Source of the DNA: a virus
Lineage: Duplodnaviria; Heunggongvirae; Uroviricota; Caudoviricetes
DNA: 7,582 bases
Virus record (IMG/VR): IMGVR_UViG_3300029516_000112
Reading direction: 5' to 3' (one strand)
The notes below the pieces were generated by a model, which saw only the letters and a list, made by a program, of their open reading frames with translations, was not told the origin of the DNA and did not search any database. Each line of letters opens with the position of its first letter. Positions within the stretch are counted from its first letter, which is position 1. Of this stretch, positions 1,611 to 3,166 are shown one piece after another. The translations under genes were made by a program, and so were the position numbers.

Positions 1611-1826
1611 ATGAAATCCATGGACAAAATTTCAACAGGCATTGCCTACGGCACCTCCGCAGGCAGTGCTGGCTACTGGTTTTTACAGCTGCTCGATAAA
1701 GTCACGCCCTCACAGTGGGCAGCAATAGGTGTGCTGGGTAGCCTGGTATTTGGCCTGCTGACGTACCTGACAAATCTTTATTTCAAGATTAAAGAAGACA
1801 GGCGTAAGGCTGCGAGAGGAGAGTAA
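1611..1826 (+). CDS. essQ: Class II holin (pinholin), phage 21 S-type, with dual-start motif
   Basis: 71 codons starting [26 protein letters not shown]...[12 protein letters not shown], matching the S21 pinholin I recall, including the Met1-Lys-Ser-Met4 dual start (ATG at 1611 and 1620; antiholin and holin forms). SD GGAGGTGAGG just upstream. The ORF-track start at 1554 is an upstream extension with no SD. Symbol assigned by Qin-like synteny. Confidence 0.9.
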
Positions 1827-1830
1827 TCCA

Positions 1831-2142
1831 ATGACTCAAGACTATGAACTGGTTGTGAAAGGAGTCCGTAATTTTGAGAATAAAGTTACGGTAACTGTAG
1901 CCTTACAGGACAAAGAACGCTTTGACGGTGAAATTTTTGGCCTGGATGTCGCCATGGACCGTGTTGAAGGAGCTGCGCTGGAGTTTTATGAGGTAGCAGC
2001 CAGAATGAGCGTCCGGCAAGTCTTCCTGGAAGTAGCAGAAAAATTGTCAGAAAAAGTTGAGTCTTATCTGCAGCATCAGTACTCCTTTAAGATTGAAAAT
2101 CCTGCCAATAAGCACGAGCGTCCTCATCATAAATATCTATGA
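1831..2142 (+). CDS. ydfR: Small protein of unknown function between holin and endolysin (YdfR/DUF1327-like)
   Basis: 103-aa ORF with SD GAGGAGAG 7 nt upstream of the ATG. Its stop overlaps the endolysin start (ATGA at 2139-2142). Position between holin and lysozyme matches ydfR in K-12 Qin; family assignment is from memory and synteny. Confidence 0.7.
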   Translation: MTQDYELVVKGVRNFENKVTVTVALQDKERFDGEIFGLDVAMDRVEGAALEFYEVAARMSVRQVFLEVAEKLSEKVESYLQHQYSFKIENPANKHERPHHKYL

Positions 2143-2672
2143 ACACAAAAATCAGATACGGCCTGTCGGCTGCCGTTCTGGCGCTGATTGGTGCTGGCGC
2201 ATCTGCTCCTCAGATACTTGACCAGTTTCTGGACGAAAAAGAAGGTAACCACACAATGGCATACCGCGATGGTTCTGGCATATGGACCATCTGTCGGGGT
2301 GCCACAGTGGTGGATGGAAAAAACGTTTTTCCCAATATGAAACTGTCGAAGGAAAAATGCGATCAGGTCAACGCCATTGAGCGTGATAAGGCGCTGGCAT
2401 GGGTGGAGCGCAATATAAAAGTTCCACTGACCGAGCCACAGAAAGCCGGTATCGCGTCATTCTGTCCCTATAACATTGGCCCTGGTAAGTGTTTTCCGTC
2501 GACGTTTTATAAGCGGCTTAATGCCGGTGATCGTAAAGGCGCATGCGAGGCGATTCGCTGGTGGATAAAGGACGGTGGACGTGATTGCCGCATTCGTTCA
2601 AATAATTGTTACGGTCAGGTTATTCGTCGTGACCAGGAGAGTGCATTAACCTGCTGGGGGATAGAACAGTGA
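2139..2672 (+). CDS. rrrQ: SAR endolysin (T4-lysozyme-type, GH24)
   Basis: 177 aa. N-terminal Gly/Ala/Ser-rich weakly hydrophobic segment ([16 protein letters not shown]) typical of a signal-anchor-release domain, followed by an E...D...T catalytic pattern ([24 protein letters not shown]) as in R21/T4 lysozyme. Closely resembles the K-12 Qin lysozyme RrrQ as I recall it. Confidence 0.9.
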
Positions 2673-3166
2673 ATCAGATATTCACGGTGATTTTGCTCGT
2701 GTTGGTAGGATTTGTCGTAGGTAATGTCTGGAGCGACAGAGGATGGCAAAAAAAATGGGCGGAGCGTGATGCTGCCGAATTATCTCAAGAGGTAAATGTC
2801 CAATTTGCTGCTCGAATAATTGAACAGGGGCGAAGTATATCCCGTGATGAGGCTGTTAAAGATGCACAACAGAAAGCCGCTGAAATTTCTGCCAGGGCTG
2901 CTGATCTGTCTGATAGTGTTAACCAGCTGCGTGCCGAAGCAACAAAATATGCCATACGCCTTGACGCAGCGCAGCATACCGCAAATCTTGCCGCTGCCGT
3001 CAGAGGCAAAACAACCAAAGCCGCAGAAGGAATGCTCACCAACATGCTCGGAGATATTGCAGCAGAAGCTCAGCTTTATGCTGAAATTGCTGACAAACGC
3101 TACATCGCAGGAGTGACTTGTCAACGGATTTATGAATCTTTAAGAGATAAAAAATATCAGATGTAG
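2669..3166 (+). CDS. rzpQ: Rz-type inner-membrane spanin (i-spanin)
   Basis: 165-aa ORF with GTG start overlapping the endolysin stop (GTGA). N-terminal TMD ([18 protein letters not shown]) followed by an Ala/Gln/Glu-rich probable coiled coil; canonical position after the endolysin. Confidence 0.8.
2862..3116 (+). CDS. rzoQ: Rz1-type outer-membrane lipoprotein spanin (o-spanin), embedded in Rz in the +1 frame
   Basis: Alternative frame wholly inside Rz. From ATG 2862: [22 protein letters not shown]|C (signal peptide, lipobox LTSC), then a Pro/Gln-rich mature part ([32 protein letters not shown]...). GAGG lies 9 nt upstream. The start could be ATG 2847 instead. Confidence 0.65.

Follow-up and report, generated by a model that had tools for sequence, protein, structure and literature searches.

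The window analysed here, a stretch of 7,582 nucleotides from a virus of the Caudoviricetes (IMG/VR record IMGVR_UViG_3300029516_000112), carries a set of lysis genes in which an open reading frame (ORF) encoding 103 residues lies between the holin gene (S) and the endolysin gene (R). What this inserted gene is for, and how its end came to overlap the start of the endolysin gene, are the questions that the locus raises. A preliminary description of the window had proposed a pinholin, SAR-endolysin and spanin cassette with an additional gene that might act as a lysis-timing or accessory factor. All the features that it listed between 1611 and 3166 are present there, and the features that bear on the argument are as follows.

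1485–1512, + strand: terminator-like hairpin and T-run, about 100 nt upstream of the holin start (7-bp stem with 5 GC pairs, then TTTTTATATTG)
1599–1604, + strand: Shine-Dalgarno (SD) sequence GGAGGT of the holin gene, 6 nt before the ATG at 1611
1611–1826, + strand: S, S21-type class II holin (essD/essQ allele), 71 aa; PF04971 ('Bacteriophage P21 holin S'), E = 5.5e-36
1817–1821, + strand: SD sequence AGGAG in the 3′ end of the holin gene, 9 nt before the ydfR ATG
1831–2142, + strand: ydfR (DUF1327), 103 aa; PF07041, E = 7.6e-51, 170.7 bits (cut-off 25)
2129–2142, + strand: R leader ATAAATATCT with the ATGA overlap, which also encodes the last ydfR codons (K-Y-L-stop) and contains no SD for R
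2139–2672, + strand: R, rrrQ-type lysozyme (933W R type), 177 aa; PF00959, E = 6e-24
2669–3166, + strand: Rz, rzpQ-type i-spanin (DUF2514), 165 aa; PF10721, E = 3.6e-38; phrog_312 (Rz-like spanin), E = 4e-58
2862–3116, + strand: Rz1, rzoQ-type o-spanin, 84 aa, in the +1 frame within Rz; lipobox LTSC, Cys23; phrog_11621 (Rz-like spanin), E = 3e-7

The region is the usual lysis cassette found in the late operon of Qin/mEp460-type lambdoid prophages of E. coli, and it is already annotated (essD/essQ-ydfR-rrrQ-rzpQ/rzoQ). Annotated E. coli chromosomes contain its 1.8 kb with 100% identity (essD-ydfR-rrrQ-rzpQ), and at least 80% of this length is found in 2066 of 5426 complete E. coli genomes. The Qin prophage of K-12 (essQ-ydfR-rrrQ-rzpQ/rzoQ; b1556–b1553 and b4689) matches it across all five genes, including their order, the 4-nt spacer between S and ydfR and the ATGA and GTGA overlaps (identities: EssQ 92%, YdfR 97%, RrrQ 99.4%, RzpQ 90%, RzoQ 94%). 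The downstream genes cspI, ynfN and gnsB are also common to both. The two loci differ in the holin allele, which is nearer to S21/essD here than in Qin, and upstream, where the window has two TolA-C lipoprotein genes and Qin has cspB/cspF. The order S-ydfR-R is shared by K-12 Qin and the isolated phages HannyBb, Tritos and BP-4795, the first two of which form plaques and retain the 103-aa ydfR allele. ydfR is a K-12 y-gene, and its carriers include Stx1 and Stx2c phages as well as many prophages. Since the cassette has textbook content, is present in K-12 and occurs in about 40% of complete E. coli genomes, nothing in it is new and it adds no new system. Matches in Veillonella and Bacillota MAGs were rejected as real hosts and are read as mis-binned contigs, as they are near-identical to E. 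coli prophage contigs (YdfR identity 96% and 83%, with the same cassette).

The lysis proteins themselves fit the earlier reading of a pinholin, a SAR-type endolysin and a two-component spanin. The holin (122.8 bits against PF04971, cut-off 26) is 92% identical to S21 of phage 21 and begins with the dual start M1-K2-S3-M4 (MKSMDK at 1611–1628), identical to that of S21. In the phage 21 record (OL657228), S21-71 and S21-68 are both annotated, the M1 product as antipinholin and the M4 product as pinholin. By analogy with S21, the M4 start at 1620 would yield a 68-aa pinholin and the 71-aa form would be the antiholin. Pinholins of this family are characterized by two TMDs, of which the first is only weakly hydrophobic and can be released, and by holes of about 2 nm. 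As in S21, residues 8–26 are rich in Gly, Ala and Ser, and residues 36–54 are hydrophobic (Kyte-Doolittle 1.72). A predicted stem between the SD and the downstream codons at the holin start occurs both here and in phage 21, with a stability not significantly different from that of shuffled sequences (z −0.8 and −1.7, respectively). The hairpin upstream of the holin gene might conceivably be read through by Q-modified RNA polymerase; a promoter and terminator scan of the region gave results at chance level, with terminator-like sites not above the expectation from shuffling.

R is 89% identical to 933W R and only 33% identical to R21, with which it shares the catalytic triad (E35-x8-D44-x5-T50, read from the sequence and aligned with R21). 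The Gly/Ala-rich N-terminus noted previously is confirmed: residues 7–26 (nt 2157–2216) include 11 Gly, Ala or Ser among 20, and the 19-residue hydropathy of residues 9–27 is 1.67. The alignment of R with the R21 structure (3hde) begins at residue 9 and so takes in the N-terminal hydrophobic segment; the Gly/Ala-rich stretch aligns with the SAR domain of R21. This segment is nearly identical to that of 933W R, which serves as a SAR endolysin reagent in the Young laboratory. R thus appears SAR-like, and is probably a membrane-tethered lysozyme; a definitive demonstration of a SAR endolysin, a class that includes R21, P1 Lyz and 933W R, consists of Sec export, lack of cleavage, membrane tethering, and release by depolarisation or pinholin (PMC9239132). 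Residues 19–22 (AGA/S) may alternatively be read as a signal-peptidase site.

The spanin genes have the same embedded arrangement as in phage 21. Rz has an N-terminal TMD at residues 4–22 (hydropathy 2.34), and its GTG start overlaps the R stop codon (GTGA at 2669–2672). This i-spanin is of a different family from that of phage 21, and the similarity between the two Rz proteins is not significant. The mature part of Rz1 is Pro-rich, and an alternative ATG lies upstream at 2847. The Stx phages carry ant between R and Rz, unlike the cassette described here. The stated difference from phage 21 at the holin-endolysin junction is also correct, as the S21 stop and R21 start codons overlap in OL657228 (TAATG), leaving no gene between them.

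The ORF that occupies this junction in the window is a DUF1327 gene. The profile search proposed in the preliminary description gives a match that spans the whole PF07041 model (positions 1–93 of 93). Its product differs from K-12 YdfR at three positions (D37G, A55V and R59M), all of them non-synonymous changes. The protein has neither a TM segment, as had been noted (highest 19-residue Kyte-Doolittle mean, 0.70), nor a signal peptide, and is predicted to be soluble and cytoplasmic. In the AF2 model, strands at residues 5–14, 18–27 and 34–43 are followed by a helix at residues 50–79, and pLDDT is below 50 from residue 75. Alignments and the model agree in dividing the protein into a conserved N-domain (codons 1–74, 1831–2052) and a variable, low-confidence tail (codons 75–103). 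The functional unit is best described, as a prediction, as a cytoplasmic domain of about 72 residues with three β strands and a helix. A comparison of the YdfR sequence with solved structures gave a single match at chance level, to the His-tagged tail of SbcD (E = 1.6), and neither PADLOC nor NCBIfam profiles matched YdfR. PADLOC also found nothing in the long YdfR alleles or in the stand-alone homologs; in the long alleles, Pfam detects only DUF1327 and PHROGs only families of unknown function. The statement that the product has no known role was thus nearly right, but the ORF is a named K-12 gene, and one paper from 2026 reports an interaction with RNase E, to which we return below.

The distribution of the family is informative as to its function. 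DUF1327 is a tiny family, with 78 clusters (E ≤ 1e-3) among 1.84 billion representatives; it occurs in 100 phage records, compared to 438 for this type of holin and about 354 for this type of R. A search with a further alignment (A5) matched no viral contigs. In all of the 91 E. coli, Shigella or E. coli-phage loci examined, ydfR is located between an S21-type holin gene and the 177-aa R. The distant homologs are stand-alone proteins of 71–76 aa, and their genes lie between tail genes M and L or L and K, after I, Q or Rz, or upstream of a holin gene; among those examined, none is placed between holin and endolysin genes. On the 3′ side of the stand-alone members there is usually a convergent small ORF (phrog_25324 or phrog_18578), and E. 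coli alleles with a gap of 320–360 nt contain a convergent ORF of 88–93 aa as well. Among the partner ORFs in general, phrog_2572 and phrog_2411 are also represented. The DUF1327 domain would thus appear to move among the slots of lambdoid late operons (the S/R junction, after Rz, after Q, and among the tail genes), in most cases accompanied by a small convergent ORF.

Constraint on ydfR is much weaker than on S or R. The dN/dS of the N-domain is 0.29–0.42 (pS 0.05–0.5), compared to 0.09–0.11 for the holin and 0.03–0.09 for R over the same range. Within the 103-aa clade, pN (0.014) exceeds pS (0.009), corresponding to a dN/dS above 1, although the contrast is noisy at such low divergence and many of the loci belong to cryptic prophages. 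Decay alleles are seen (an ACG start, a 25-aa truncation and a frameshift), while the N-domain is intact in nearly all copies.

Does ydfR participate in lysis? The gene starts 4 nt past the holin stop codon, a spacer that is invariant in 91 of 91 ydfR loci, and its SD is the one within the 3′ end of the holin gene, so that YdfR is made with the lysis proteins. The co-expression inferred previously does follow, on the basis of operon membership, which is not a functional link. A soluble lysis-timing or accessory factor could modulate pinholin triggering or the release of the SAR endolysin, for example via the cytoplasmic tail of S or the membrane potential, and both the invariant position directly after the holin gene and the borrowed SD speak for such a factor. 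However, 933W and Min27 lyse with the same types of S and R (82% and 89% identical, respectively, for 933W) in the order S-R-ant-Rz, where R follows S after the same 4-nt gap and ydfR is missing. The placement of distant homologs in tail modules, after Q or after Rz, the weak constraint relative to S and R, and an ATGA overlap that is specific to one allele further weaken the proposal, as do the predicted cytoplasmic location and the published ties to RNase E and RNA. An association of the family with holin and endolysin genes, as would be characteristic of a lysis regulator, be it an antiholin or an accessory lysis protein like P1 LydB or T4 RI, holds only in the Escherichia clade. The constant S-ydfR-R linkage in this clade could reflect a clade-specific lysis role or, equally, a single insertion that recombination in the adjacent S and R genes has spread. 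We found no report in the literature of an effect of YdfR on lysis timing or of its binding to holin or endolysin. The proposed role as a lysis factor is unsupported by these comparisons, and we consider it quite unlikely.

A K-12 ydfR deletion is among the raw hits of an envelope-leakage screen, and this has been counted in favor of a lysis role. We regard the hit as uninformative, as it appears only in raw supplementary lists with a score near that of 'empty' wells. Polarity, with rrrQ driven from the kan cassette, could account for it.

The two junctions of ydfR differ in character. At the upstream junction, the equivalent GGAG in the holin 3′ end of 933W and Min27 serves R. At the downstream junction, the overlap identified earlier is present: the ydfR TGA (2140–2142) overlaps the endolysin ATG (2139–2141). 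The SD-less leader ATAAATATCyATG is conserved before R in every ydfR-linked cassette, including that of BP-4795, whereas the distance from the ydfR 3′ end to R varies from −4 to +359 nt across alleles and the protein length from 103 to 243 aa. The ATGA overlap is confined to the 103-aa allele. The local RNA at the ydfR/R junction is predicted to be unstructured (−5.9 kcal/mol, z +0.7), with no fold better than those of shuffled sequences.

This arrangement could suggest that the ORF is primarily a translational device, which occupies the SD after S, ends in ATGA and sets the level of R by termination-reinitiation, the protein being secondary. R lacks an SD in all ydfR-linked cassettes, in contrast to 933W and Min27, and the overlap is retained in 78 of the 80 loci with the 103-aa ORF, as this explanation would have it. 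However, R needs no coupling, since the other ydfR alleles stop 50–359 nt before R and keep the same leader. In the Stx1 phage BP-4795 (complete genome record; S-ydfR-R-ant-Rz), for example, the DUF1327 gene also starts 4 nt after S and encodes 114 aa (N-domain identity 45%), and a gap of 50 nt, with no overlap, separates its end from R. In addition, the N-domain dN/dS of 0.3–0.4 at deeper divergence and the existence of stand-alone homologs indicate selection on the protein itself. A purely translational role is thus highly improbable.

The ATGA overlap instead looks like a deletion scar. The long alleles (174–243 aa) run on past the sequence '...HDRPH', at which point the 103-aa form switches to the leader-encoded K-Y-L. 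A deletion may have fused ydfR at about codon 99 to the SD-less R leader, and this would have created the ATGA overlap. It would apparently have removed the C-terminal extension, any partner ORF and an intergenic hairpin. In such a history, ydfR would have taken over the holin-3′-end SD that serves R in 933W, leaving R to be translated from an AU-rich, SD-less leader, perhaps aided by termination-reinitiation in the 103-aa allele.

If the allele was shortened in this way, it might be the remains, decaying or already without function, of a moron with two genes, DUF1327 and its convergent partner. Such a moron would be expressed partly from the prophage, and its real function (exclusion, defence or counter-defence) would need the lost parts. 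The continuation of the long alleles, the partner ORFs in other alleles and in distant clades, the excess of pN over pS within the clade and the decay alleles are all consistent with such a remnant. The intact N-domain in nearly all copies and the retention of the allele by the plaque-forming HannyBb and Tritos argue against it. The 103-aa protein of K-12 also accumulates stably and gives specific interaction signals via residues 1–72 (PMC13232886). PADLOC finds nothing for YdfR or for most of the partners. We consider a functionless remnant unlikely, though somewhat less so than a lysis factor. One partner ORF weakly matches PDC-M39B in PADLOC (16.8 bits).

Our preferred interpretation is that the window contains a lysis cassette of the Qin/mEp460 type in which ydfR, in a shortened allele, is late-expressed accessory mobile cargo, directed at RNase E or RNA, and not a lysis component or timer. 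We put the probability of this interpretation at roughly 0.55. It builds on the gene identities, synteny, distribution, selection and junctions observed here, and takes the binding of RNase E and RNA from the published work; from these we infer a phage role directed at RNase E or RNA, the dispensability of ydfR for lysis, and the deletion history.

[quoted passage not shown] Residues 1–72 are sufficient for a two-hybrid signal with RNase E 1–597, and Strep-YdfR pulls down Rne(1–598) together with DNase-resistant nucleic acid, for which the authors could not exclude a contaminant (PMC13232886). The study used overproduced, tagged protein; a full-length fusion with a short linker interacted only with Rne 1–597, and overproduction of YdfR altered few transcripts (PMC13232886). 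The most probable activity of YdfR in the phage would be binding, late in development, to RNase E (in its catalytic half), to RNA or to both, a function directed at the host or at RNA. A broader and more tentative suggestion, which we would not yet favor, is that the 72-aa DUF1327 domain defines a novel family of late phage proteins, which would attach to RNA and/or to RNase E in its catalytic half, would tune RNA decay, and would be carried among lambdoid late-operon slots as mobile cargo, often accompanied by a convergent partner. Such tuning might, for example, shield the long late transcript, or remodel host mRNA decay just before lysis.

If the binding of RNase E or RNA holds during phage development, DUF1327 would be an addition from temperate phages to the few phage proteins that target host RNA decay. 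The comparative results, namely the apparent dispensability for lysis, the mobility among slots, the convergent partners and the putative deletion scar, shift the focus of experiments from lysis timing to RNA metabolism. T7 gp0.7, phiKZ Dip and T4 Srd are small phage proteins that modulate RNase E or the degradosome. Searches revealed no resemblance of YdfR to these three proteins in sequence or fold and, unlike them, YdfR would be a late product, encoded at the lysis end of the operon.

In its genomic behavior, the family resembles lambdoid morons. Morons such as lambda bor and lom are small accessory genes, dispensable for growth, whose sites among the late genes vary; a member that is convergent or has its own transcription is often present. 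DUF1327 genes likewise occupy varying sites between conserved late genes. Unlike morons, however, ydfR is co-oriented with the late operon and translationally embedded in it, and this allele is without a dedicated promoter or terminator. In base composition, ydfR is unremarkable among the neighboring genes.

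The lysis cassette of the window comprises five genes, and all the features named in the preliminary description were recovered at their positions by ORF reading, Pfam searches and hydropathy analysis:

1611-1826, + strand, holin S, 71 aa, beginning MKSMDK; PF04971 (Bacteriophage P21 holin S), E 5.5e-36; Shine-Dalgarno (SD) sequence GGAGGT on the same strand, 6 nt 5' of the start
1831-2142, + strand, ydfR, 103 aa; PF07041 (DUF1327), E 7.6e-51; starts 4 nt past the holin stop, with AGGAG (+) in the holin 3' end 9 nt before it
2139-2672, + strand, endolysin R, 177 aa; PF00959 (phage lysozyme), E 6e-24; its ATG shares bases with the ydfR TGA (ATGA)
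2669-3166, + strand, Rz, 165 aa; PF10721 (DUF2514), E 3.6e-38; its GTG overlaps the R TGA (GTGA)
2862-3116, + strand, Rz1, 84 aa, in the +1 frame, with lipobox LTSC

The 165-aa and 84-aa products are Rz-like spanins according to PHROGs. YdfR contains no hydrophobic segment (highest 19-residue Kyte-Doolittle mean, 0.70), as had been noted.

This arrangement is already known: it entered GenBank with the genomes of K-12 and BP-4795, and NCBI's annotation pipeline has names for it. Across the 1.8 kb of the cassette, several E. coli chromosomes match at 100% identity, with the annotation essD - ydfR - rrrQ - rzpQ; some match to this stretch occurs in 5160 of 5426 complete E. coli genomes, and at least 80% of it in 2066. 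These five genes also stand, in unchanged order, in the cryptic prophage Qin of E. coli K-12 MG1655 (protein identities to the window: EssQ 92%, YdfR 97%, RrrQ 99.4%, RzpQ 90%, RzoQ 94%). Among isolated phages, HannyBb has a 99% identical YdfR in the same four-gene arrangement, Tritos has one of 96% identity adjoining its endolysin, and BP-4795 has an annotated 'YdfR family protein'. The flanking genes (Q, tRNAs and TolA-C lipoproteins on the 5' side; cspI, ynfN, gnsB and then terminase on the 3' side) fit a Qin-like late region. The reading that we favor, with a probability of roughly 0.55, is that the cassette is an ordinary Qin-type set of pinholin, exported lysozyme and spanins with ydfR as late-expressed accessory cargo, that lysis would proceed without it, that its product most likely binds RNase E and/or RNA, and that the ATGA would be a deletion scar incidentally coupling R to ydfR.

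The proposed pinholin, SAR-endolysin and spanin system is well supported at the sequence level. The holin and S21 of phage 21 share 92% identity, and S21 is annotated with an antipinholin from M1 and a pinholin from M4. In the lysozyme, the E35-x8-D44-x5-T50 triad is present, together with a Gly/Ala/Ser-rich segment (11 of 20 at residues 7-26). A search of solved structures aligned the lysozyme, from its residue 9 on and through the SAR region, with full-length R21 (3hde). Its identity is only 33% to R21 but 89% to the R of 933W, which is listed as a SAR endolysin reagent of the Young laboratory (PMC9239132). The definitive test of a SAR endolysin is release by a pinholin (PMC9239132). The SAR-like segment (window 2139-2216, R residues 1-26) ends in AGA|SAP, resembling a signal-peptidase I site, and AGA|S at residues 19-22 could be read as one. 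The lysozyme is predicted to be exported whether tethered or cleaved, so that either reading satisfies the requirement of a pinholin for an exported endolysin. The spanins belong to the DUF2514 type, to which the Rz of phage 21 is unrelated. The cassette is thus mosaic: its holin is S21-type, its R 933W-type and its spanins Qin-type. The statement that phage 21 lacks a gene between S and R is also correct, as the S21 and R21 genes share a single base (TAATG) in OL657228.

The same holin and endolysin families occur without ydfR in other phages. In 933W (proteins 82% and 89% identical to those of the window) and Min27, R begins exactly 4 nt past the S stop, the slot held by ydfR in the window. 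An S21-type holin occurs in 438 phage records and an R at least 80% identical to that of the window in ∼354, against only 100 records with DUF1327, which is absent from nearly all of 124 Stx2a phages. Within Escherichia, ydfR lies 4 nt after an S21-type holin and is followed by a 177-aa R in all 91 loci collected, a sample in which the IMG/VR loci overrepresent sequences closely related to the query. Beyond Escherichia, stand-alone homologs (71-76 aa, 28-33% identical, with reciprocal matches to E. coli-phage YdfR) occupy varied slots. Some lie among the tail genes, between L and K (comparison loci L096-L099), between M and L (L100, L103) or 3' of K and I (L101, L106, L107). Others directly follow Rz (L104), come after a Q-like antiterminator (L110), or precede a set of holin, endolysin and Rz genes (L108, L109). 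In every contig of sufficient length, a small convergent ORF comes next, belonging to phrog_25324 (∼100 aa) or phrog_18578 (∼185 aa), as at 449-667 with 696-1001 in L103 and 3501-3719 with 3749-4048 in L106. E. coli alleles with 320-360-nt gaps likewise have a convergent 88-93-aa ORF (phrog_2572 or phrog_2411) between ydfR and R; further partner loci are L091 (3674-3955), L012 (4311-4589) and L009 (4500-4766). The pair thus recurs in different late-operon slots with partners from several phage families of unknown function, one of which has a weak 16.8-bit match to the PADLOC candidate model PDC-M39B. The window allele has apparently lost any such partner. These varied slots and partners suggest that the DUF1327 domain is mobile cargo of lambdoid late operons rather than tied to the holin.

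The ATGA overlap is present in 78 of the 91 loci, all with the 103-aa allele; the remaining alleles (104-243 aa) stop 50 to 359 nt before R. The R leader, ...ATAAATATC(T/C)ATG, has no SD sequence and is the same in every ydfR-linked cassette, overlapping or not. The last codons of the 103-aa allele (K-Y-L/I-stop) come from this leader, and longer alleles read '...HDRPHLAGFDS...' where the 103-aa form reads '...HERPHHKYL*'. The simplest reading is that a deletion joined ydfR at codon ∼99 to the R leader, which would make the overlap a scar and not a conserved design. The SD sequence that serves R in 933W is taken by ydfR in these cassettes, so R must initiate on an unstructured AU-rich leader. 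Reinitiation possibly helps R in the 103-aa allele, but coupling is not required, because the R of BP-4795 is uncoupled behind the same leader. That ydfR is purely a translational spacer is very improbable, given such uncoupled alleles and its conservation at the protein level. R proteins linked to ydfR start MNTKI, MNVKI or MSAKI, whereas the 933W type starts MSRKL, suggesting a recombination joint inside the first few R codons.

Selection was compared by pairwise Nei-Gojobori pN/pS, binned by pS; ratios at low divergence are noisy, and many loci are cryptic prophages. For pS 0.05-0.5, the ratio was 0.29-0.42 for the ydfR N-domain, 0.09-0.11 for the holin and 0.03-0.09 for R; for pS < 0.05, the values were ∼1.6 (pN 0.014, pS 0.009), 0.21 and 0.28, respectively. 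The three nucleotide differences between ydfR of the window and of K-12 (L094) are all non-synonymous (D37G, A55V, R59M), while the 20 differences in rrrQ change one amino acid. Thus, ydfR is a real protein-coding gene under constraint much weaker than, or different from, that on the adjoining lysis genes. Its truncation, the lost partner and this relaxed selection would suit a functionless remnant of a two-gene moron, a rather unlikely explanation in view of its retention in plaque-forming phages and of a K-12 protein that is stable and interacting. Decay alleles were seen in L084, L085, L088, L010 and L042 (IMG/VR and genome loci): ACG for the ydfR ATG, a 25-aa truncation, a 129-aa form that a frameshift carries into the +1 frame across the start of R, and an R interrupted by an IS3-family element. 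Such alleles agree with the presence of many copies in cryptic prophages. The earlier proposal of a lysis-timing or accessory factor is made less probable by 933W and Min27, the other slots beyond Escherichia, the scar-like overlap and the weak constraint; a clade-specific lysis regulator is unlikely, with the perfect S-ydfR-R linkage within Escherichia as its only remaining support.

The orphan family DUF1327 has very few members. Among 1.84 billion cluster representatives, a profile search detected 78 clusters at E <= 1e-3, many of which are fragmentary, and a word-indexed search of 5.8 billion sequences gave 187 proteins, all from Escherichia or Shigella where a source is named. A scan of one genome per species found the domain only in E. 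coli, E. ruysiae, E. albertii and S. flexneri, plus two MAG bins whose contigs are near-identical to E. coli prophage sequence. Cassettes with the same holin and R, and YdfR of 96% and 83% identity, were seen in Firmicutes MAGs (L006, Veillonella parvula; L008, Bacillota); these contigs are most likely mis-binned and do not reflect true host range. Alignments define an N-terminal domain of ∼74 residues, with Y5, Y53, E54 and A57 invariant in all clades, and a variable C-terminal part (total length 103 to 287 aa). The N-domain is common to five PHROG families, all of unknown function. AlphaFold2 predicts, with good confidence, three antiparallel strands (5-14, 18-27, 34-43) and a long helix (50-79), with a tail disordered from residue 75; fold searches gave no informative matches.

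Full-text searches on DUF1327 or ydfR returned almost nothing except Göpel et al. (RNA Biol 2026, PMC13232886). In that study, codons 1-72 of K-12 ydfR, which coincide with the conserved N-domain defined above, were recovered as an RNase G and RNase E interactor in a two-hybrid screen; full-length YdfR gave a two-hybrid signal with Rne 1-597, and both Rne(1-598)-FLAG and DNase-resistant nucleic acid, the latter in unusually high quantity, co-purified with Strep-YdfR. [quoted passage not shown] In an envelope screen cited there, ydfR is found solely in the raw hit lists of the supplement, close to 'empty' wells, a hit that could be explained trivially by a kan cassette reading into rrrQ. A broader proposal, tentative and somewhat doubtful, would make DUF1327 a novel phage family of RNase E or RNA-binding modulators that travels as cargo of late operons, accompanied by a convergent partner.

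Several neighboring features were also observed. The sRNA STnc100 is matched at 84-274 (+) (RF02076; 114 bits, gathering score 47), 5' of two tandem lipoprotein genes at 385-813 and 964-1359 (+), between the Q/tRNA region and the holin. Their products have lipoboxes IIGC and VAGC and TolA C-terminal domains (PF06519, E 2e-23 and 1e-14); speculatively, they may act as decoys against TolA-dependent colicins or filamentous phages. RefSeq calls the first a partial tolA pseudogene; its ORF is intact in the window. A GC-rich 7-bp hairpin followed by a T-run (1485-1512, +), ∼100 nt 5' of the holin start, may be a terminator passed only by Q-modified polymerase, although such sites are no more frequent in the region than expected by chance. 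Downstream, a cspA-type thermoregulator 5'UTR with a cspI-like cold-shock gene (3372-3788, +; RF01766, 107 bits; PF00313) is followed by a GnsA/GnsB-family gene (4417-4590, +). This cold-shock cluster, typical of Qin, fits the reported cold induction of the adjoining lysis cluster.
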